From Clostridia bacterium (GTDB lineage Bacteria; Bacillota; Clostridia; Oscillospirales; CAG-382), in NCBI GenBank assembly GCA_017429165.1, contig JAFRPL010000032.1, forward strand, positions 173,007-237,006: 64,000 nt of DNA, read 5' to 3'. The notes under the pieces were generated by a model. The model made no database searches. It was not told where the DNA came from and saw only the letters and a program-made list of their open reading frames with translations. The position numbers and the translations under genes were made by a program. Positions 12,370 to 25,987 of the stretch are shown here, piece by piece (within the stretch, counting starts at the first letter, position 1; each line of letters starts with the position of its first letter).

Positions 12370-12398
12370 TTGATTTTTAAAACCATATGTGCTATAAT
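12370..12398 (+). promoter_or_regulatory. Promoter of tRNA-Leu unit (TTGATT-17-TGc-TATAAT)
   Basis: TTGATT 12370..12375 and an extended -10 TGcTATAAT ending at 12398. It would give a leader of about 80 nt that includes the heptamer repeat. Confidence 0.45.
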
Positions 12399-12429: not shown

Positions 12430-12478
12430 TCAATTTTTAATTTTCAATTTGCAATTTGCAATTTGCAATTTGCAATTT
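12430..12478 (+). repeat. 7-bp microsatellite (KYAATTT)x7, with the last four units perfect GCAATTT
   Basis: Units start at 12430, 12437, 12444, 12451, 12458, 12465 and 12472. The repeat ends 6 nt before the tRNA-Leu 5' end. Confidence 0.9.
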
Positions 12479-12484
12479 ATATTC

Positions 12485-12567
12485 GCGGGTATGGCGGAAT
12501 CGGCAGACGCGCCGGATTTAGGATCCGGTGGGAGACCGTGCAGGTTCGACCCCTGTTACCCGCACCA
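12485..12567 (+). tRNA. tRNA-Leu(UAG): tRNA-Leu (anticodon UAG)
   Basis: Hand-folded cloverleaf. Acceptor GCGGGTA/TACCCGC, anticodon stem CCGGA/TCCGG with loop TTTAGGA, a long variable arm, T-arm GCAGG-TTCGACC-CCTGT, and an encoded CCA. Confidence 0.9.
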
Positions 12568-12570
12568 TGC

Positions 12571-12597
12571 AAAAGACCCGCTTAAGCGGGTCTTTTG
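12571..12597 (+). terminator. Rho-independent terminator of tRNA-Leu
   Basis: GACCCGC-TTAA-GCGGGTC followed by TTTT. Confidence 0.75.
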
Positions 12598-12600
12598 CAA

Positions 12601-12860
12601 TGATATCCGTTCCTTCCCCATTCCCCAAAACTCGCTTCGCTCGTTTCGGGGGCCCCTTGGGGCGCCGGAACGGGTGATATATGCTTCGCATATGATATCC
12701 CCTTCGGGGGTGATATACGCCTGCGGCGTATTGACGGGGTCCCCACAAAACCCGCGGGTTTTGTGGGGGTGTCAGGAACGGGTATTATATCATATTGCGA
12801 CGAAGGAGCAATATATCATACGGCGCAGCCGTATATCATATCGCGTCAGCGATATATCAT
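12601..12860 (+). repeat. Micro-hairpin array A (GC-rich hairpins separated by GATAT/ATATCAT spacers)
   Basis: ATATCAT at 12787, 12813, 12833 and 12854, separated by ATTGC..GCAAT, ACGGC-GCA-GCCGT and ATCGC-GTCA-GCGAT. Earlier hairpins are ATATGC-TTC-GCATAT, CCCC-TTCG-GGGG and ATACGCC-TGC-GGCGTAT. There is a perfect 28-nt palindrome at 12741..12768. Confidence 0.7.
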
Positions 12861-12895
12861 TTATCCTGTGTTATGAATATTCTGACCAAACAGTA

Positions 12896-12937
12896 CAAAT
12901 CCGAACCCAAGGCCTATTGGCGAAGGGTTCGGATTTG
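12896..12937 (+). terminator. 13-bp-stem hairpin closing array A
   Basis: CAAATCCGAACCC (12896..12908) pairs with GGGTTCGGATTTG (12925..12937), followed by the T-rich TCGTTTATTTC. Confidence 0.5.
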
Positions 12938-13007: not shown

Positions 13008-13365
13008 ATGAATTTGAACATCGGTAACATCGGAGTCTGGGGGCGCGGGTGTCCGGTGGACACCTCTGCCGAAGGCAGAAGCGCTGACCGAGCCGGCAGG
13101 CGAGATCCGGCATTATGAATATCTCAAACAAAACCGCCCGTCCACCGTCGGCGTTATGCGTATGAACGGAACGCTTGAAGGGTATCTCAAAGAGGTCAAC
13201 CAAGAAGCAACAGAAATGCTTGAAACGCTCGTCCGGCAGTATGCAAAGGCAGAAGGCGTCACAGAAGCCCTCAAGCGATCGGATCAGCTTGAATGGGTAC
13301 GCCATATGAATAACATCCGCAACCGCGCCGAAGAAGTCGTTCTGAACGACATCATTTACCGATAA
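13008..13365 (+). pseudogene. TnpV-like transposon protein, apparently frameshifted
   Basis: GGAGGT-7 nt-ATG at 13008 opens a 36-codon frame that stops at 13116. TnpV-like sequence (…LPKAEALTEPAGEIRHYEYLKQNRPSTVGVMRMNGTLEGYLKEVNQEATEMLETLVRQYAKAEGVTEALKRSDQLEWVRHMNNIRNRAEEVVLNDIIYR) continues in another frame from 13018 to 13365. Confidence 0.6.
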
Positions 13366-13372
13366 ATGTAAG

Positions 13373-13399
13373 AGGCGGGGAGATCAACTCCCCGCCTCA
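13373..13399. repeat. 27-bp hairpin repeat, copy 1 (AGGCGGGGAGATCAACTCCCCGCCTCA)
   Basis: 8-bp stem GGCGGGGA/TCCCCGCC with loop GATCAAC. Identical to 14686..14712. Confidence 0.85.
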
Positions 13400-13443
13400 T
13401 CTTTATGCTCTGGAATCGAATAAGTGGAGATAGTCAAAAACCC

Positions 13444-14439
13444 TTAACTAAGTTTTTGAATTTCTCTTTTCGCCCAATCGACACACTCGCCGTCGTTAAT
13501 CCCGTAGTCATCGGCAAGAGATTTGATAATCATTTTCCAAACATCAATCGCTTCGGCATTCTTTTTAATCTTGGTATACAGAAATGCTTGAGCGTAAAGC
13601 GCATCCAATTCTTTTGGAACAGGAGCTGCCTCGTATGACTGCTGATATAACTGCAGTGCAGCATCGATGTCATGAATGTTATCGAATCTTTCTGCTATCT
13701 TGAAAAGTAATTCGCAGTCGCGGTGGTTTTCATTCGCTGCGGAACGCCAAAGCGCAATCGCCTTGTCTTTGCGTCCCAAAGCAAGTTCAATATCCCCTTG
13801 ATAAATCTCAAATATTGGTCTTTTTTTAGATGACAGCATCAGAGAAGCAGCATCATCGCAACGACCGTGCGTGATATAAATATCGATCAATGTTTCTACG
13901 AGAATATCGTTCTGTTTATTTTTTGAATACAGAGCTTCAAAAAACTCGATTAAACGATCCGATTCGTCTCGCTTTTCTCTGATTCTTGTCAGTTTTCCAA
14001 TCAAAGCAATGTTTGAGGGCTCGATCAACAATCCTTCTTCGCAGAGCCGACCGCAAGCCAGTAAATCTCTGTTTTCACGATGTTCATACAACTCTACGAG
14101 AAGAATTCGTGCGTTGTTGTTCTGTTTTTCTTCGCTCAATAAACCTTTGAGATATCGTTCTGCCCACAAAAAGTTTTCGGGAGCTATCGAATACTCATCC
14201 CGGATCATTTTGCTGATTCGCTCAATATAATCGTCTTTATTCATTGAAAACAGCGTATCGATGCTGACGCCGAAAAACAAGGCAAGCTGAGGGAGAATTG
14301 CGATGTCTGGCGTTGTTGCGTTTGTTTCCCATTTAGAGACTGCTTGAAAAGATACGCACATTCTGTTCGCAAGTTCTTCTTGCGTGATACCCCGCTCAGT
14401 ACGAAGTTTCTTTATTGCTGCGCCAAGTTTAAGTTCCAT
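13444..14439 (-). CDS. XRE-family HTH regulator with TPR-like C-terminal domain (paralog 1)
   Basis: N-terminus LGAAIKKLRTERGITQEELANRMCVSFQAVSKWETNATTPDIAILPQLALFFGVSIDTLF is a Cro/C1 HTH. The remaining ~260 aa are helical-repeat-like. GGAGG RBS present. Confidence 0.85.
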   Translation of the reverse strand: MELKLGAAIKKLRTERGITQEELANRMCVSFQAVSKWETNATTPDIAILPQLALFFGVSIDTLFSMNKDDYIERISKMIRDEYSIAPENFLWAERYLKGLLSEEKQNNNARILLVELYEHRENRDLLACGRLCEEGLLIEPSNIALIGKLTRIREKRDESDRLIEFFEALYSKNKQNDILVETLIDIYITHGRCDDAASLMLSSKKRPIFEIYQGDIELALGRKDKAIALWRSAANENHRDCELLFKIAERFDNIHDIDAALQLYQQSYEAAPVPKELDALYAQAFLYTKIKKNAEAIDVWKMIIKSLADDYGINDGECVDWAKREIQKLS

Positions 14440-14465
14440 AAGGATACCTCCAAATAATAATGATG

Positions 14466-14494
14466 TTTATCACGTGACATATACATTATATCGT
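14466..14494 (-). promoter_or_regulatory. Candidate promoter of XRE-TPR paralog 1 (TTGAAT-17-TATAAT, minus strand)
   Basis: The reverse complement of about 14460..14520 reads TTGAATtctattatactcgacgaTATAAT. Coordinates are approximate. Confidence 0.4.
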
Positions 14495-14527
14495 CGAGTA
14501 TAATAGAATTCAATAAACACTTGTTAG

Positions 14528-14563
14528 AATCAACTCGCTTGTTGAGAGAATAGCGAGTTGATT
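14528..14563. promoter_or_regulatory. Perfect 12-bp-arm inverted repeat (operator candidate)
   Basis: AATCAACTCGCT (14528..14539) and AGCGAGTTGATT (14552..14563), upstream of the XRE-TPR promoter. It shares a CAACTCG/GAGTTG core with 22059..22073. Confidence 0.5.
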
Positions 14564-14650
14564 TTCAACCGAACATTTGCCCTTCCTAAGCAAAAAAACT
14601 TATACATTAGGCGAGTATATAATAAATGGCACCGAGCCAAATTATACATT

Positions 14651-14676
14651 TATAATTGACAACTATAATTGACAAC
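14651..14676. repeat. Tandem 13-bp duplication TATAATTGACAAC x2
   Basis: Exact copies at 14651..14663 and 14664..14676. Each carries a TATAAT hexamer and a TTGACA hexamer. Confidence 0.85.
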
Positions 14677-14685
14677 GCAAAAATA

Positions 14686-14712
14686 AGGCGGGGAGATCAA
14701 CTCCCCGCCTCA
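14686..14712. repeat. 27-bp hairpin repeat, copy 2 (also the likely terminator of the sigma gene on the minus strand)
   Basis: Identical to 13373..13399. On the minus strand it is followed by a T-run (CCTTATTTTTG). Confidence 0.85.
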
Positions 14713-14783
14713 ATGATTTCAGCAAATAATTTCAAGAAAAACAATACGCCTTTTATCAAAACATCCACGTCCCAAGCTGTTAT

Positions 14784-16355
14784 TTACACTTGAACGTTAT
14801 TTCTTGCTACTTGTTTATCATCATTGTCGATTTCATAAACAAATACAGCGACTGGCTTTTCTTCATCGGATATCATCAGCACGCCGGAATCTGCAGCACA
14901 TTTGCCGATATAGCCGACAGTTCTGAAAAACAGAGTCTTGCCGACGATCTTCTCCACGATTGGCTCAACACTTTTCGGCGCGTGCTGTTTCATCAGATCT
15001 ACGGCAATATCCTTTAACTCTCCATAAAGCGCCGCCATATCACTGATCTGTTTACTAAGCATCGATTCAACTTCCGCAAGCTCGCGTTTTGTCAGGATCA
15101 TATATTCGTCTTTTCCCGAATCGAGTGAATCTTTGACAAGTGAGCCGTTATAGTTGTAGTGGCATATTTTCGGCAGAATTCCGAAATCCGCAAAAGCCGC
15201 CGCATAACGGTCATTGATTTCGGAGTATCCAGCAAAAGAGTAACAGTCGTTTTCTTTAATGACCAACGTTTCTTTTTCCGTGTCAAATCCCGACTCATCG
15301 TAATCTGTTCCATAATTGATTCCCGTTGCACCGGAATAGATCTCGTCTGGATTACTGTCGGACAAAGTATTCTCAAATACTCCATGTCCTCTATGCATGA
15401 TCAGCCACAACAGCGGCCAGAGCAAATGATTTTCATCGAGCGTGTTTCCACGAAAACCGATCTTGCGCAATTCCGGGAGGAGGAGTTTTGTGTCGCTTAT
15501 GATTTTGCCGATTTTACTTACACAAAGCTCTTTTGCTTTTGAATAGAATTCCAGCGTGTAATCCGAAGTAAAAATCACAAGATTTGTCTGGTACTTGCCG
15601 CCTGGAAGCGCTGAAATCAGCTTGTATTTTTCGAGCAGAGCTATCTCGTCTTCCATATAGACCGACGACACGCCGAGCTCAAGAGACAATTCACGGATCG
15701 TCATTGGAGTATAATACGCGCTGTGAAGTATGTTTCCGGGCAACTTGCGATTGAACAGATTTCTGTATTCGCGGTTGAATTGCCCTGAGAATATCGTAAC
15801 AAATTCAAATTTTGCGGGGTTATAGCTTTTTTCGCCAAACTGTCTTTCCATACCGATACCTTCTTTCAGTAATTGCCTTGTTTTAAACAGGTGATACTTC
15901 ACCATTTCAAGGCTGATGTTTTGTTCTTCTGCTATTTCTTTGCAGGACTTGTTTTGGAAATAAAAGGCAAGGCAAACCTCACGGTGAGTTTTGGAAAGCA
16001 AAGACAGTTCGCGCCGCAGCAGATTCAGGCTTTCGTTTTTGCGCTCGCTCTCGATCAACTCTTCCTCCGGCGACGCTCCGGCGTCAATAAACGTATCGTC
16101 GTCGGGCAACGGCGAAAGCGACTGCCGGCGTTCCTTTTGCTTTATGAATTTGCGGAACGTATTTTCCGCAATTTTCCACAGAAACGCCCAGAACGCTTCG
16201 TCGTCTTTGATCCTGTTTGCCGATCTCAAAACCTCGTACACGATCTCTTGGGCCAGTTCGTCCACATCGTCTTTGTCATAAAGGCGCGCGAATGCGTAGC
16301 CGTAGATGTTTTTCAGGTTATCTGATATCAGCTTTGCCGCTTTTTGGTTTTCCAT
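14784..16355 (-). CDS. Sigma-70 family (ECF-like) sigma factor with ~340-aa C-terminal extension
   Basis: Region 2-like ELAQEIVYEVL...FWAFLWKIAENTFRKF and region 4 HTH CKEIAEEQNISLEMVKYHLFKTRQLLK lie within the first ~180 aa. The remainder includes a winged-helix-like stretch (MTIRELSLELGVSSVYMEDEIALLEKYKLI). Confidence 0.8.
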   Translation of the reverse strand: MENQKAAKLISDNLKNIYGYAFARLYDKDDVDELAQEIVYEVLRSANRIKDDEAFWAFLWKIAENTFRKFIKQKERRQSLSPLPDDDTFIDAGASPEEELIESERKNESLNLLRRELSLLSKTHREVCLAFYFQNKSCKEIAEEQNISLEMVKYHLFKTRQLLKEGIGMERQFGEKSYNPAKFEFVTIFSGQFNREYRNLFNRKLPGNILHSAYYTPMTIRELSLELGVSSVYMEDEIALLEKYKLISALPGGKYQTNLVIFTSDYTLEFYSKAKELCVSKIGKIISDTKLLLPELRKIGFRGNTLDENHLLWPLLWLIMHRGHGVFENTLSDSNPDEIYSGATGINYGTDYDESGFDTEKETLVIKENDCYSFAGYSEINDRYAAAFADFGILPKICHYNYNGSLVKDSLDSGKDEYMILTKRELAEVESMLSKQISDMAALYGELKDIAVDLMKQHAPKSVEPIVEKIVGKTLFFRTVGYIGKCAADSGVLMISDEEKPVAVFVYEIDNDDKQVARNNVQV

Positions 16356-17443: not shown

Positions 17444-17532
17444 AACTAAATCCTTCCTCCCAATTCCCCGAAACGAGCGATACGAGTTTTGGGGAACGGG
17501 GTCCGCGATTTCACTAAGTGTTTTATCATCCC
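17444..17532 (+). repeat. Micro-hairpin element B (related to the first module of array A)
   Basis: TCCTTCCTCCCAATTCCCC-GAAACGAG..CGAGTTTTGGGG-AACGGGGT, then ATTTCAC and TTATCAT spacers. Aligns with 12609..12680. Confidence 0.55.
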
Positions 17533-21436: not shown

Positions 21437-21512
21437 CGGGATGTAGCGCAGCTGGTAGCGCGCGTGGTTTGGGACCACGATGTCGCAGGTTCGAACCCTG
21501 TCATTCCGACCA
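21437..21512 (+). tRNA. tRNA-Pro(UGG): tRNA-Pro (anticodon UGG)
   Basis: Acceptor CGGGATG/CATTCCG, anticodon stem CGTGG/CCACG with loop TTTGGGA, T-arm GCAGG-TTCGAAC-CCTGT, and an encoded CCA. Confidence 0.9.
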
Positions 21513-21640: not shown

Positions 21641-21661
21641 CGAACCCTGTCATTCCGACCA
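21641..21661 (+). repeat. 21-nt duplicate of the tRNA-Pro 3' end
   Basis: CGAACCCTGTCATTCCGACCA at 21641..21661 is identical to 21492..21512. Confidence 0.9.
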
Positions 21662-21662
21662 G

Positions 21663-21694
21663 AAAAAGTCCGGCGCTTGCGCGTCGGACTTTTT
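21663..21694. terminator. Bidirectional-looking terminator hairpin
   Basis: AAAAA-GTCCGGCGC-TTGC-GCGTCGGAC-TTTTT. Confidence 0.6.
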
Positions 21695-21881
21695 CAACTC
21701 TATTCGCCTTCGGCGAGTTTAATTGCGTTGCAGTGTTATTCGGCTGACGCCGAGTGTTATTGCGCTTCGCGCAGTTTAAGGCGAATAGAATATCACTTCG
21801 AGCGAAAGCTCGAAATATCACTTTTCGCGCAGCGAAAAATATCACATCACGCGTCAGCGGGATATTTCACTCTTGTAAGGT
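21695..21881 (+). repeat. Micro-hairpin array C (ATATCAC-punctuated)
   Basis: ATATCAC at 21790, 21815 and 21839 and ATTTCAC at 21864. Inserts are TTCGAGC-GAAA-GCTCGAA, TTTTCGC-GCA-GCGAAAA and ATCACGC-GTCA-GCGGGAT. Preceded by TCGCC-TTC-GGCGA, TCGGC-TGAC-GCCGA and TGCGC-TTC-GCGCA. Confidence 0.7.
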
Positions 21882-21910: not shown

Positions 21911-22058
21911 CAGCCGGTATTAACGGTTACGCAACTTAAAAAAGTGTGTAAACCCACTATGACACTTTCACGGCTTCGTCGTGCAAAGATGCCAGTGTGC
22001 TTTATATCAACGCAAGAAATCGAAAAAACTTCGTCCAGTCACTCACGCTCGGCATCAA

Positions 22059-22119: not shown

Positions 22120-22156
22120 GAAGTTACACCGGTGAATTCAAATGCTTGGAGGAAAT

Positions 22157-23320
22157 ATGAATATCAAAATAGGAGCAAAAATCAAATCACTGCGAAAGCG
22201 CGACGGCGTGACGCAGGAAAAGCTGGCTGACGCTTTGGGCGTCACGGCACAGGCGGTCAGCAAATGGGAAAGTGAAATCGGTTATCCAGACCTTGAGTAT
22301 CTAACACCAATCGCAAACTTTTTCAATATCACGATCGATGAACTCTTTGAACACGATCTTATTGAGAAACAGCGAAAGATCGACGACTACTGCGCACGTT
22401 ATGACGATCTGGCACGGAACTGGTCGCCGCCGGAAGAACGCGTCGAACTGATGCGTCAGGCACTTGCCGAATTTCCTGCAAACGAAAAGCTGCTTTTCCG
22501 TTTGGCTCAGGCTTTGTGGTATAAATGGGAAGACGCATGGCGTTCTTGCGACGAAATTGGCGTAACCATTGACGGCAAGTACCGCCGTGATCAAAACAAA
22601 ATCAGGGCTGTGCCCGGTTGGGAGGAACCGTGCCGGATCATGGAAGAACTGCTTGCGGTTTCCGTTGACGATCTTATCCGTTATGAATGCACGCAGCTTT
22701 TGATATTTATCTACAGTTGTATCGGCGAAAAAGAGCGGGCTATCGAACTGGCGGAGCGCTATCCCGATTCCAAAGACTCCTTTTTGTCGGTGGCCTTTAT
22801 GAACAGTTACGATGATGAAGCCGACATGTACAGTCAAAGGCTCATGATTGACGGTCTTCACAATTTGCTTTACCAGCTTTTAAGACAAGTTAAAACACCG
22901 GCGGACAGAATTGCCGCCGCCAACAAACTGATCGATCTGTATAGTTTTCTTTTTGGAGAGGACTGCGGATTTTATCACGTGCATTTTTATTATCTGTATC
23001 TTGATCTCGTTTCCGCTCTGCTGGATCTGGATCGTACGGACGACGCTTTTTCCGAACTGAATCACGCTTTTGAACACGCCAAAGCGTTCGATGAGTTTTT
23101 GGATAAGCTGCGCAAGGAGGGAGAGTATCTCTATTCATCCTCTGTCGTAAGCAAGTTGAAAAGCAAGTCTGAAGAAGTCTACGCAACAAAACAATTACCC
23201 GAGTTTCTTGAAAACGTGTTGTTGGATAAAAACAACGTATATTTCAAAAAACTGAACGACGATCCACGGTTTATTTCTCTTGTTGAGCGCGTCAAAGAAG
23301 CAATAAACCAAGATAAATAA
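22157..23320 (+). CDS. XRE-family HTH regulator with TPR-like C-terminal domain (paralog 2)
   Basis: ATG 22157 after GGAGG. The N-terminus IGAKIKSLRKRDGVTQEKLADALGVTAQAVSKWESEIGYPDLEYLTPIANFFNITIDELF parallels paralog 1. The C-terminal region is a long helical repeat. Confidence 0.85.
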   Translation: MNIKIGAKIKSLRKRDGVTQEKLADALGVTAQAVSKWESEIGYPDLEYLTPIANFFNITIDELFEHDLIEKQRKIDDYCARYDDLARNWSPPEERVELMRQALAEFPANEKLLFRLAQALWYKWEDAWRSCDEIGVTIDGKYRRDQNKIRAVPGWEEPCRIMEELLAVSVDDLIRYECTQLLIFIYSCIGEKERAIELAERYPDSKDSFLSVAFMNSYDDEADMYSQRLMIDGLHNLLYQLLRQVKTPADRIAAANKLIDLYSFLFGEDCGFYHVHFYYLYLDLVSALLDLDRTDDAFSELNHAFEHAKAFDEFLDKLRKEGEYLYSSSVVSKLKSKSEEVYATKQLPEFLENVLLDKNNVYFKKLNDDPRFISLVERVKEAINQDK

Positions 23321-23760: not shown

Positions 23761-24447
23761 ATGAAAAAAATATTAGCGCTCACGCTTGCACTTTTGGTGC
23801 TCGTCAGTCTGGCTGCTTGCGGAAGCTGCGGCAGTCCCGTCGACAACAATACAAACAATTCCGCCGCTACCGGCGATGATCAGCAATCCGGAAATGAATC
23901 CGGGAACGGCAACACTTCGCAAAGCGGCAGTACCGCCGAACCGGCTAAACTCACCGGAAAGCTCAATCTCATCGAACTCGACGACAGGGATCCGTCCGTA
24001 CTTCGCGGCGTGACCATCAAAGGCAACTGTGCCGGCACTGCGGATGGTTTCAACAACAGAGAGTCTTCCCTTACCGATGTCCGCTGCATCTTTGAACTGA
24101 ACGAGTGGGTCTATTTCTACCCGGATACCGACGCGACCTACGGACTCAGAGTCTGGATACTCAAGCACCGCGACGATCAGGAATATTACAACACCTGCAA
24201 ATTCAGCGACCTTATGCCGAACTTTGCAAACTATTGCGATCTTCATTATCCCGAGGATGAAGAAAATCCGGATGAATCAGAATGGGGCAGCTTCTACCTG
24301 AATAAGGAAGAATGCGAACCCGGCTATTACGATTTCGTTTTCACTTATGAGGGAAAAGCCATCGCCACCCTGCTGACCCGCTTCTATAACGAAAATGAAC
24401 TCACCGTCAAATCCGACGCGGAGCTTGAAGCGCTGATGCACGAATGA
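23761..24447 (+). CDS. Lipoprotein of unknown function
   Basis: ATG 23761 after AGGAGG. Lipobox in MKKILALTLALLVLVSLAACGS, followed by a Gly/Asn/Ser-rich linker. Confidence 0.75.
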   Translation: MKKILALTLALLVLVSLAACGSCGSPVDNNTNNSAATGDDQQSGNESGNGNTSQSGSTAEPAKLTGKLNLIELDDRDPSVLRGVTIKGNCAGTADGFNNRESSLTDVRCIFELNEWVYFYPDTDATYGLRVWILKHRDDQEYYNTCKFSDLMPNFANYCDLHYPEDEENPDESEWGSFYLNKEECEPGYYDFVFTYEGKAIATLLTRFYNENELTVKSDAELEALMHE

Positions 24448-24540: not shown

Positions 24541-24568
24541 AAAAAAGCAGCCTTTTGGCTGCTTTTTT
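24541..24568. terminator. Bidirectional terminator
   Basis: AAAAAA-GCAGCC-TTTT-GGCTGC-TTTTTT, between convergent genes. Confidence 0.75.
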
Positions 24569-24658
24569 CCAATGATATACGTTCATTGCGGGAGCGGATA
24601 TCATCTTGCGGCGGTAAAAGAATATATCACACACGCCTGCGCGAGAATATCGTTTATC
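24569..24658 (+). repeat. Degenerate micro-hairpin element D
   Basis: Spacers GATATAC, GATATCAT, ATATATCAC, ATATCGT and ATCTCAC are interleaved with short GC-rich segments. Confidence 0.45.
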
Positions 24659-25987
24659 TCACTTCCCCGCAAACTTTTCGCGCACGGCTTTGCAGCGCAT
24701 GGCGAATCCGCGGATGGAAGCGTTGTCGAACCCGGTGATGCCGGAAGAGTACGTATCGTTCAGTGGTTTCGCGAACCGTTCGGGGATATTCGACGCGCCC
24801 ACCAAAGCGCCCATGAACGAGCCGACGGTGGCGCAGTTGCAGTCGGTGTCCATTCCGCAGGTGAGGGCGGTGCAGATGGCGTTTGCGAAATCGCCTTTTG
24901 CAAAGAATATGCTCGCTATGCACACGGCGGAGTTGTTCAGCGCGTGGACCGCGTTGTATTCGGGCATTCCGTTTATCACGCGATCGGCGAGCTCTTCGCG
25001 GCTCTGCGCGGTCTCGCCTATCTTTTTGGCTTCGAGCGCCGTTTCGTAAAAGCGCGAACGTTTTGGCACGAACGAAAGCGCGGTATCGAAGCACTTGTTT
25101 ATATCTTTTTCGGTAAACGCCGCGGCAATGAACGCCGCAAAGAACATCGAAGAATAGACGCCGTTTTTGATATGCGAAAGGAACGAATCCTCGTACGCCA
25201 TCTTCGCCGCCGCCGCGGGCAATCCTGCCGCGCAGTAAGCGTAGCCGTCTATGCGGATCTGCGCGCCGATCCATTCGCGATAAGGGTTGCGGTATTCGTT
25301 TATGCGCTCTCTTTTGAGTATTTCGAGCGCGTGCTCGGGTCTTCCCCACGGGCCGAATTCATCCACCGAGGCAAAGTTCAGGTACACCTGGTTTTCGGCA
25401 GTGCATACGTAGCGGTACGGGATGGAATACATCCAGTGCGCGCCCACGTCGTAACTGTCGAATTTAAAGCCCATCCTTTCGCAAAGCAGCAGAGCCAGAA
25501 CGGTAAAGCGGATATCGTCGTCGGGAGGCATGCCCTGTATTTTTTCGTCGGTCGCAAATCCCTCGTTGCGTTTATCGCCCGATACGGTGGGGACATAGCC
25601 GTCTATGGGATATCTGCCGGCGTTTTTATACCATTCGCGTATCCCTTCGCCGTTCCACAGCTCCACCGGCTGGCCGAGCGCGCATCCGGCGCATCTGCCG
25701 AGCCACGCGCCGTGGAAATAGTCGTCGTCCACAGGCGACACTTCGCCGTCTTCTTTGAAGGCCGCTTCTTTTTTTATGCCTTCCAAGTCGCTGGGTTCGA
25801 CATACGAGTAATCTTTGCGGAACGGAAGCGCCATGAGCTCGTCGTAGAGCGCGGAAAGCTCTTTCTTATCGCCCGCGCATTCGGTTATGCGTTTTTCGCA
25901 TTCCGCGCGGTCGATGACTCTTCCCTCTTCGACGAGCTCGTCGAGTTCTTCGCGAATAAGTATTTCGATCTTCTGATACCCTGCCAT
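24659..25987 (-). CDS. ADP-ribosylglycohydrolase-family protein
   Basis: 442 aa. Motifs GAWLGRCAGCALGQPVE near the N-terminal third and GMDTDCNCATVGSFMGALVG near the C-terminus match the family. Confidence 0.85.
   Translation of the reverse strand: MAGYQKIEILIREELDELVEEGRVIDRAECEKRITECAGDKKELSALYDELMALPFRKDYSYVEPSDLEGIKKEAAFKEDGEVSPVDDDYFHGAWLGRCAGCALGQPVELWNGEGIREWYKNAGRYPIDGYVPTVSGDKRNEGFATDEKIQGMPPDDDIRFTVLALLLCERMGFKFDSYDVGAHWMYSIPYRYVCTAENQVYLNFASVDEFGPWGRPEHALEILKRERINEYRNPYREWIGAQIRIDGYAYCAAGLPAAAAKMAYEDSFLSHIKNGVYSSMFFAAFIAAAFTEKDINKCFDTALSFVPKRSRFYETALEAKKIGETAQSREELADRVINGMPEYNAVHALNNSAVCIASIFFAKGDFANAICTALTCGMDTDCNCATVGSFMGALVGASNIPERFAKPLNDTYSSGITGFDNASIRGFAMRCKAVREKFAGK

Follow-up and report, generated by a model that had tools for sequence, protein, structure and literature searches.

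The Gut-1 motif forms half of a two-armed repeat found at terminators in uncultivated gut Clostridia

The Gut-1 motif (Rfam RF01706) was described as a probable non-coding RNA present in human-gut metagenome sequence and in no sequenced organism, and neither the text nor the supplement of the discovery paper says anything of it beyond 'human gut only', its function being given as unknown (Weinberg et al. 2010, PMC2864571). Rfam labels the family 'Gene; sRNA', that is, a small RNA (sRNA), and in the literature searched Gut-1 is mentioned only by the 2010 discovery paper. Here we analyse array A, a series of short hairpins directly behind a tRNA-Leu gene, in a stretch of 64,000 nt (the window) from a metagenome-assembled genome (MAG) of a Clostridia bacterium (CAG-382; contig JAFRPL010000032.1, positions 173,007-237,006 of the forward strand). 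Array A belongs to the Gut-1 family, and Gut-1 itself makes up a single arm of a bigger, two-armed repeat that is located at transcription terminators of uncultivated gut Clostridia. With regard to the array the result is mostly deflationary, as it falls within a curated Rfam family and is no novelty in kind. The novelty lies in the complete architecture, of which one arm only is represented in the Rfam model; as far as the literature was searched, the two-arm plan, the long-range helix P1, the complementary linkers, the sub-families, the terminator context and a long form of ~400 nt are undescribed.

Array A and the Gut-1 family

An Rfam 15 scan of the window returned three tRNAs and a Gut-1 match at 12782-12862 on the minus strand, with 50.8 bits against a gathering score (GA) of 50 bits for RF01706. 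A second pass with relaxed filters added 12598-12721 on the plus strand, which at 49.4 bits lies just under GA and carries a 53-nt insertion in hairpin 1. Array A is not unclassified, because it matches RF01706 at gathering score, and such a match to a known family is a refuting condition that had been set in an original prediction, made from the sequence alone, which had recognised no known family here. The same prediction had seen no fit to CRISPR, a tRNA or any recognised riboswitch. No other Rfam family (riboswitches, ROOL, GOLLD, raiA, tRNA-like) reached GA or a convincing E-value in the window or in the relatives' loci scanned, the check it had proposed with the ROOL, GOLLD and raiA models returning only tRNA and Gut-1. 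A CRISPR array has direct repeats of ~23-50 nt and unique spacers that are not palindromic, along with cas genes or a leader; here the repeat is of 7 nt, the 'spacers' are hairpins, the halves are inverted and there is no Rfam CRISPR match. Array A has the three consecutive hairpins, covarying stems and GUGAAAU-like linker of Gut-1, and the relatives listed are gut bacteria, nearly all of them known as MAGs, the window genome being itself a MAG. The parts of the locus are as follows (window coordinates).

12370-12398: promoter-like site of tRNA-Leu, TTGATT-17-TATAAT
12485-12567, plus strand: tRNA-Leu (anticodon TAG), the upstream transcription unit (ARAGORN; Rfam tRNA, 56.1 bits)
12569-12598, plus strand: P0, intrinsic terminator of tRNA-Leu, GCAAAAGACCCGC-TTAA-GCGGGTCTTTTGC, tail TTTTGC (from the sequence)
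12600-12729, plus strand: proximal arm, the Gut-1 motif on the plus strand (the Rfam match of 49.4 bits)
12600-12606 and 12607-12613: linker L0, ATGATAT, and foot X, CCGTTCC
12614-12666: expansion of hairpin 1 (H1), holding CCCCAAAAC..GTTTCGGGG and GCCCC-TT-GGGGC
12667-12673 and 12674-12680: X'', GGAACGG, and linker L1, GTGATAT
12681-12691 and 12692-12698: hairpin H2 and linker L2, ATGATAT
12699-12709, 12710-12716 and 12717-12729: hairpin H3, linker L3 (GTGATAT) and hairpin H4
12730-12773, plus strand: central insertion, an optional expansion module with the perfect 28-nt palindrome CCCCACAAAACCCGCGGGTTTTGTGGGG (CCCCACAAAACCCG/CGGGTTTTGTGGGG, 12741-12768)
12774-12788, plus strand: X', central complement of the 5' foot, AGGAACGGGTATTAT, in a helix used by the minimum free energy (MFE) fold of the plus strand
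12787-12860, plus strand: distal arm (the Rfam match of 50.8 bits on the minus strand)
12787, 12813, 12833 and 12854, plus strand: the four distal-arm linkers, ATATCAT
12794-12812, 12820-12832 and 12840-12853: hairpins H5 (ATTGC-N9-GCAAT), H6 (ACGGC-GCA-GCCGT) and H7 (ATCGC-GTCA-GCGAT)
12896-12937, plus strand: hairpin with a 13-bp stem (12896-12908 / 12925-12937), then GTCGTTTATTT, 35 nt past the element

Every statement made on the sequence of this locus was borne out, including the four ATATCAT with the three hairpins between them, the 13-bp stem, and the place of the array directly 3' of the tRNA-Leu terminator, the element core starting at 12600. The GATAT-type spacers announced upstream are TGATAT at 12601, 12675, 12693 and 12711, flanking ATGC-TTC-GCAT, CCCC-TTCG-GGGG and ACGCC-TGC-GGCGT, and the repeated module, of which the 28-nt palindrome forms part of the second copy, has GGAACGG at both 12667 and 12775. 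The description as one array of at least nine equivalent hairpins stood only as regards the hairpins, since these form two arms with opposite linker polarity and long-range pairing. The 5' foot ATGATATCCGTTCCT (12600-12614) pairs with 12774-12788 to give a 15-bp long-range helix, P1, that encloses the proximal arm. Neither this complementarity nor the opposite orientation of the two halves had been remarked, nor had the true span of array A (12569-12860), the ends of which are inverted (TGATAT...ATATCA).

Two expansions are carried by array A, one inside H1 and one, the 28-nt palindrome, before X'; the CCCCAC(A/G)AAA..TTTTG(T/C)GGGG module (CCCCACAAAA..TTTTGTGGGG) occurs also within the hairpin-1 loop of the relatives L247 and L259. 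P0 alone joins a GC-rich hairpin to a direct U-run, as an intrinsic terminator does, and the array hairpins have no U-runs. The 12896-12937 hairpin, possibly a weak terminator, does not belong to what is conserved in the family; among relatives, 49% of the 70-nt stretches past the last linker fold at or below -15 kcal/mol versus 31% of control DNA, so that these are slightly more structured. The array is far beyond chance, as judged from TGATAT-N(8-30)-TGATAT (nine matches in the window against 0.05 expected, seven of the nine in arrays A and C), from GTGATAT (22 matches against 4.4 expected) and from a folding energy z-score of -10 against shuffles on both strands.

A tandem heptamer, (CAATTTG)n, occupies 12445-12472 of the leader, past the promoter and ahead of tRNA-Leu. 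In the close relative L320 (around 280-340) the run is longer and less regular, and a similar TTTTCAATTTTCAA run flanks one of the Gut-1 seed sequences of Weinberg.

Architecture, covariation and genomic context in relatives

Relatives were gathered from a species-representative genome collection with a pattern across the centre and distal arm, GAATAKAATATCAC-N9-32-ATATCAC, which gave at least 120 loci where by our own estimate about a dozen would be expected by chance. Seventy-four cores were aligned with MAFFT and their consensus fold was obtained with RNAalifold. A full-element covariance model, R1, was built, and further sub-families came to light with R1 and with an unbiased search for 6-mers of any kind that recur around hairpin spacers. 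Against Gut-1, the proximal arms of the relatives reach 51-74 bits. Among the 80 matches listed, on which the host and source statements rest, all hosts are Clostridia-class gut bacteria, nearly all of them MAGs (Acutalibacteraceae, Oscillospiraceae, Ruminococcus, Faecousia, Christensenellaceae, 'Eubacteriales'), from humans, goats, deer, sheep and cattle.

The whole element was reconstructed from more than 120 loci in gut Clostridia genomes. When the upstream gene's strand is read, the parts come in one order in all copies, namely P0, proximal arm, spacer, X' and distal arm. The proximal arm is made of linker L0, foot X and hairpins H1-H4 separated by L1-L3 (GTGATAT-like), and the distal arm, preceded by a short spacer and X', of four copies of the reverse-complementary linker (ATATCAC) around H5-H7. 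The core measures 164-173 nt unless a hairpin carries an expansion; it starts 1-2 nt past P0, and at the other end the distal arm often stops ~5 nt short of the next gene's -35 box. The P0 hairpin touches the core start in 94 of 96 elements, 30 times with a T-run, where it is the terminator of the upstream tRNA or gene, and 64 times without. Some flanks in Weinberg's Stockholm file likewise show a second, inverted half behind a tRNA and terminator, or behind a stop codon and terminator.

The long form, of ~370-420 bp, comprises P0, the core, a polypurine hairpin, two to three more hairpins and an inverted P0-like hairpin, and as it is bracketed by locus-specific inverted arms with an A-run and a T-run, it sits inside the apparent stem of a bidirectional terminator. 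Its extra conserved hairpins (in L223 2480-3100, L218, L238, L290, L310 and others), which read AAAGAAAGAGAAGACTCG..CGAATCTTCTCTTTTCT, GGGTTTGGGC-TACT-GCCCAA, GCATTTGTAC-TTA-CAAATGC and GGTTCTTA..TAAGAAC, have no Rfam match and may be an undescribed structured domain in their own right. In one long-form sub-family (L212, L237, L238, L239, L241, L244, L251, L254, L257, L268, L269, L276) the motif AACCCACTATGACACTTTCA, usually after GTATGTA, recurs in many species, in a hairpin with a T-run downstream of the distal arm; it also lies ~80 nt past array C (window 21951-21970) and is not in Rfam.

The window holds two further copies and a remnant, the last two of them unremarked before.

21663-21871, plus strand: array C, second complete copy, major sub-family (164.6 bits with model R1, of whose training set it is a member)
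21663-21694, 21700-21708 and 21780-21788: terminator, foot CTATTCGCC and central GGCGAATAG of array C
21790, 21815, 21839 and 21864: distal linkers of array C, ATATCAC three times and then ATTTCAC
24541-24663 (core 24570-24663), plus strand: degenerate third copy (18.7 bits with model R1, E 0.034)
17444-17518, plus strand: remnant after the tRNA-His terminator, identified by resemblance to 12600-12675 alone

Array C scores 40.1 bits (plus strand) and 41.7 bits (minus strand) against Gut-1, both under threshold, and has the same order of loops as array A, as had been claimed; array A itself is matched by model R1 at 12690-12861 on the plus strand (41.5 bits, E 1e-6). The third copy sits between convergent genes, behind the terminator of the gene ending at 24447, and consists of a terminator (24541-24568) followed by AATGATAT .. 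GATATCAT .. ATATCAC .. ATATCGT with decayed hairpins. The tRNA-His remnant has one expansion module of the hairpin-1 type, CCCCGAAAC..GTTTTGGGG with AACGGGG, similar to that inside H1 of array A, and a single ATTTCAC, as if a copy had been truncated. Upstream of array C, the last 20 nt of tRNA-Pro (21492-21511) are duplicated 149 nt downstream (21641-21660); the piece between has its own terminator (AAAAAGAGCAAAAGG..CCTCTTTTGCTTCTTTTTTT), and the original tRNA end, the terminator and array C follow the second copy, an arrangement that looks like an integration scar.

The hairpin array is under selection for structure, as the original prediction had supposed. RNAalifold on the 74 cores gave P1 (foot with X') together with H2, H3, H5, H6 and H7; compensatory double changes were seen at 24 of the 36 pairs, 96.6% of cells were paired versus 77.2% in column shuffles (reached in 0 of 500), and the covariation score was 0.441, where shuffles gave 0.111 and slid partners no more than 0.08. 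A P1-equivalent helix exists in all 74 aligned relatives, with one pair that is AU in 43 and CG in 31 without exception. The foot has two partners, X'' in the proximal arm, with which it forms H1, and X' in the centre, with which it forms P1, the two pairings being mutually exclusive, and both partners track the foot across sub-families (TTCGCC, GTGTTCC, AAATCCC, TCGTTCC, CCGTTCC, CCAATCC).

The linkers vary as well. At least eight types were found (GTGATAT/ATATCAC, GTGATGT/ACATCAC, GCGATAT/ATATCGC, ATGAAAT/ATTTCAT, TCGATAT/ATATCGA, ATGAAGC/GCTTCAT, TATGTAAT/ATTACATA and, in the window's array A, ATGATAT/ATATCAT), of which different ones coexist on one contig, and in every sub-family found the linkers of the two arms are reverse-complementary to each other; a sub-family of inverse polarity has TATATCAT in the proximal and ATGATATA in the distal arm. 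L201 and L263, in which the linkers are ACATCAC, have nearly the same H5 as array A. If the distal linkers are called R1 to R4 (not to be confused with model R1), complementarity in the major type follows a nested register, with L3:R1 at 92-100%, L2:R2 at 80-100%, L1:R3 weaker and L0:R4 poor. The R3 form ..CGC was found in two elements only (L222 and L300), both among the three elements with an L1 of GCG... Among linker pairs read on the plus strand, wobbles comprise 23 G.U versus 5 A.C (p = 0.0009, not corrected for relatedness).

These linkers could give rise to a second, 'fishbone' fold, in which L3:R1, L2:R2 and L1:R3 would pair and the hairpins protrude. Four proximal versus three distal hairpins fits such a ladder with H4 at its apex. 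For L197 the MFE structure is the fishbone (-61.0 versus -54.3 kcal/mol for P1), and in the 74 single-sequence folds L3:R1 was formed in 33 and P1 in 24. Kissing loops between the arms were considered and rejected; UUC/UAC and GAA/GUA are complementary as classes, yet complementarity within an element equals the shuffle expectation.

About a third of the copies come immediately 3' of a tRNA gene or of the final tRNA in an operon, with at least 10 isoacceptors represented, and the remaining copies follow protein genes. The upstream gene is co-oriented with the element in a ratio of 64:12, the downstream gene in one of 38:39. Between species, copies share 88-93% identity along 160-400 bp, and the 1.4 kb beyond the element show no similarity at all. 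A census of 565 kb of retrieved sequence found eight extra diverged copies, and the 64 kb of the window hold three copies and a remnant; as a rough extrapolation, there would be tens of copies per genome across gut Oscillospirales. This dispersal pattern suggests mobility. The 340 open reading frames (ORFs) flanking ~100 copies include no recurrent neighbour gene such as a transposase or an RNA-binding protein, apart from a weak XRE-HTH/TPR excess; their largest homologous cluster has four members, the clusters inspected are not transposases, and no RAYT/IS200-type partner was seen among them.

XRE-HTH genes adjoin both arrays of the window, at 13444-14439 (minus strand) and 22142-23320 (plus strand), with TPR-like C-terminal halves, and along their first 88 aligned residues the two proteins share 42% identity. 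Genes for related HTH proteins lie directly downstream of the L202, L271, L303 and L304 copies; they are the largest neighbour cluster and represent a weak excess.

Phage and plasmid collections contained no match to the element. Broad GTGATAT-repeat patterns run on viral contigs returned nearly only phage operator arrays (GTGATATCAC) and coding repeats, L172 being the single true family member. In IMG/VR, a family of viral contigs of ~55-60 kb (L022, L038, L044, L049, L060 and others) has six to nine palindromic GTGATATCAC sites clustered just upstream of a small gene, with the look of an operator array and unrelated to the Gut-1 element. A metagenome scan for A-type relatives with three ATATCAT returned only AT-rich tandem-repeat junk and was set aside.

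Readings of the element

We read array A, tentatively and at slightly less than an even chance, as a complete copy of a dispersed self-folding element, probably a sense-strand 3' trailer RNA that is REP/BIME-like in its genomic behaviour. The element would function in single-stranded form on the sense-strand side, most likely as RNA, and this predicted RNA would be transcribed together with the upstream tRNA or mRNA, as its 3' trailer. By itself the element would fold into a compact, branched structure, either P1 with local hairpins, favoured in arrays A and C, or the fishbone. With a self-closing fold of this kind the element could sit directly behind an intrinsic terminator, or in its loop, and leave that terminator intact; the probable outcome would be a very stable 3' block, a barrier to 3' exonucleases and to read-through, and the family would have spread as DNA repeats, much as REP/BIME elements do. 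The original prediction, which had offered either a REP/BIME-like family or a structured 3' trailer RNA, came near to the evidence in that the copies are dispersed, terminator-adjacent and co-oriented with the upstream gene, the likeness to REP/BIME being one of analogy.

The sense strand is indicated by the distal-hairpin wobbles (24:11), by the conserved U.G pairs that close H2 and H3, and by scores with model R1 of 120-199 bits forward versus 30-70 bits in reverse. Wobble bias, U.G pairs, score asymmetry and gene orientation together argue for the sense strand, and most simply for RNA.

Several observations weigh against this reading. P0 is a good terminator with a U-run in array A and in about a third of copies, and with such a terminator ahead of the core little sense transcript should reach the array; nothing convincing as a promoter or terminator of its own was found for the array on either strand. 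Wobble amounts to 1.1% of the variable stem pairs, which is very rare for RNA, and there G.U versus A.C stands at 27 versus 15 (p = 0.09). The linkers of one element are all identical, which simple selection on pairing does not predict. In array A the fishbone reaches -111.6 versus -125.9 kcal/mol for the P1 fold, and in both A and C the P1 fold is favoured over it, the proximal linkers of C being degenerate. As to the spread of the family, no target-site duplication flanks array A or the relatives inspected, and comparisons of the tRNA-Leu locus gave no empty site. Finally, the arms mirror each other: to the TTC/TAC/TTAC loops of one correspond GAA/GTA/GTAA loops of the other, and the type of loop goes with the polarity of the linker, in the inverse-polarity sub-family too. 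Loops on the strand reading ATATCAC are mostly C-GNA-G or C-GNNA-G. Stable DNA mini-hairpins are typified by C-GNA-G triloops, and mirror symmetry of the arms is what an element read at the DNA level on both strands would show.

On account of this symmetry, the rare wobble, the identical linkers and the preceding terminators, we keep as a strong rival, although it appears unlikely as a whole, the possibility that array A is a DNA-level palindromic repeat analogous to REP/BIME or to miniature inverted-repeat transposable elements (MITEs). Its unit would be the heptamer plus hairpin in single-stranded DNA (ssDNA), with RNA incidental; owing to the opposite clusters, each strand would present one active form (ATATCAC-type linkers with C-GNA-G hairpins) to a hairpin-recognising enzyme (HUH/RAYT-like or other) or to a replication or repair factor. 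Mirror-symmetric arms, loop composition included, and pairs that are almost exclusively Watson-Crick would be natural here. So would linkers that are homogeneous within an element and change in concert, as when A and L201/L263 share H5 and differ in every linker, at the same position in all copies. Several sub-families lie on one contig, as with REP families, and copies are dispersed at unrelated loci with sharp similarity boundaries, in or behind terminators that include strong ones expected to block transcription. This reading does not account for the bias of wobble and orientation to the sense strand, and at least eight linker specificities would need equally many cognate proteins. Nor does it find the transposase-like neighbour, the target-site duplication or the match in phage or plasmid collections that could be looked for, and no near-identical copies occur within one contig. 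A MITE, derived from a DDE transposon, has terminal inverted repeats with a direct target duplication, and here, with ends that are inverted, there is no direct repeat flanking array A or the relatives inspected.

The vicinity of tRNA-Leu bears on a further alternative. A low-GC stretch (40-45%) follows array A at 13008-16355. It contains a TnpV fragment (13156-13365, positions 47-111 of the 111 of Pfam TnpV) whose frame from the ATG at 13008 has five stop codons, the XRE-HTH and TPR gene of 13444-14439 (minus strand), and a 523-aa protein with sigma-70 regions 2 and 4 (14784-16355, minus strand); 13008-16355 looks like a decayed mobile element beside tRNA-Leu. Comparison by identity of the neighbouring MMPL protein gave two loci, with orthologues at 77% and 67% identity, that lack both tRNA-Leu and the array, a 97% relative whose contig ends before the array position, and a 96% relative (L320 1-160, read on the minus strand) with nearly the same tRNA-Leu and promoter region and a longer leader repeat. 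In L320 the sequence differs from the first base after the tRNA, with another terminator and irregular short hairpins, and the contig ends ~150 nt past the tRNA. The 3' flank of tRNA-Leu thus appears as a strain-variable hot spot between L320 and the window.

It is very improbable that array A is itself the end (the att-side arm) or the scar of a mobile element integrated at tRNA-Leu. The low-GC stretch with its TnpV fragment, HTH-TPR regulator and sigma-like gene would fit such an origin, as would the altered sequence past the tRNA in L320 and the orthologous loci with neither tRNA nor array. The same architecture, however, follows many tRNAs and ordinary genes that have no mobile-element genes nearby, array C is native to the original tRNA-Pro 3' end, and no second tRNA-Leu 3' end was found in the window.

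Taken at face value, the Rfam annotation would make each arm a separate sRNA gene, two Gut-1 genes in convergence, and indeed the Gut-1 model matches the proximal arm on the plus strand and the distal arm on the minus strand in A, C, L195, L223 and L265. We reject this on architecture and wobble, and consider it very improbable: the arms are always adjacent, in fixed order and number (4 + 3 hairpins), and tied by P1 and the complementary linkers; there is no room for promoters, as the core starts 1-2 nt past P0 and the distal end often stands ~5 nt before the next -35 box; and distal-arm wobble favours the plus strand, not the minus.

Least probable of all, the heptamers would be double-stranded binding sites for a protein (roadblock, insulator, partition, nucleoid) at the 3' ends of transcription units, a notion in keeping with their repetition, high conservation and two inverted clusters, with their position between the terminator and the next promoter and with the XRE-HTH/TPR genes beside A and C and directly downstream of four other copies, but one that leaves the compensatory changes of the hairpin spacers unexplained, does not place the sites on one face of a helix of about 10.5 bp per turn (one arm spaces them by 18-20 bp, the other by 24-25 bp), and has to accommodate at least eight different heptamers in one bacterial group, sometimes on the same contig.

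Beyond array A, it is possible, though we would not call it probable, that Gut-1, instead of being a free-standing small RNA, is an arm of a new modular 'fishbone' class of elements, with a core of 165-175 nt, long forms of up to ~400 nt and at least eight sub-families set apart by their co-varying linkers. This class would colonise intrinsic terminators, directly behind them or in their loops with the terminator stem kept closed, and would have two exclusive folds, P1 and the linker ladder, both backed by covariation. Such an element could live in terminators as a mobile element, its structure maintained by selection for leaving the host terminator unbroken, or it could be a structured RNA in many copies that includes a switch. 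The question is thereby framed as one between an RNA switch, an ssDNA element and a terminator-resident selfish repeat, and the inter-arm linker covariation and the three-way complementarity of the foot provide concrete, testable structural models for it.

Comparison with known repeat systems

Among ssDNA structures with many hairpins, the 3' overhangs of Streptomyces telomeres, the inverted terminal repeats of parvoviruses and the ssi/primosome sites have packed hairpins with C-GNA-G loops and a longer palindrome enclosing them. The part of the element made up of P1 and H2-H4 resembles these, as a resemblance only: they are found at replicon ends or origins, one or two per replicon, whereas the Gut-1 element is internal and chromosomal, with tens of copies at gene 3' ends.

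BOX of pneumococci, ERIC/IRU, the Correia elements of Neisseria and bcr1 of Bacillus are modular intergenic repeats of 100-400 bp with predicted RNA folds, often near terminators or promoters, and their function is mostly unknown or generic (mRNA stability). Unlike the Gut-1 element they are conserved in sequence, some with terminal inverted repeats and target duplications, and to our knowledge none of them has the fishbone design with inter-arm linker covariation.

The repetitive extragenic palindromes and their mosaic clusters (REP/BIME, REPIN) of Proteobacteria come closer. They too are short palindromic units in clusters of opposite orientation, with several families per genome and tens or more copies, intergenic, at gene 3' ends and co-transcribed as 3' structures; the Gut-1 element is likewise dispersed in many 3'-end copies with oppositely oriented clusters. 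REP stems, in contrast, are conserved in sequence, carry a 5' GTAG and go with a RAYT gene, whereas the stems of the Gut-1 element differ between units and copies, have no GTAG and leave only the 7-nt linkers conserved, and its units form direct clusters of 4 + 3 and not alternating pairs. As no RAYT/IS200-type partner was seen among the flanking ORFs, and no target duplication or GTAG signature, REP/BIME is an analogy and not a membership: the element appears to resemble these repeats in behaviour, without their defining features.

Gut-1 is the closest described system. Array A shares with it three short covarying hairpins separated by GUGAAAU/GUGAUAU, known from gut-derived uncultivated bacteria only. 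It differs in having two arms, ATGATAT/ATATCAT linkers and two expansion hairpins, where the Rfam model is one arm annotated as a free-standing sRNA gene. Both the model and the 'sRNA gene' label thus appear to cover half of the element, which affects the annotation of thousands of gut genomes. After 16 years without function, context or organism, Gut-1 can now be assigned to hosts (MAGs of Acutalibacteraceae, Oscillospiraceae and Ruminococcus type, from humans and ruminants) and to a fixed place in the genome, at terminators and tRNA 3' ends, and its full architecture is described.

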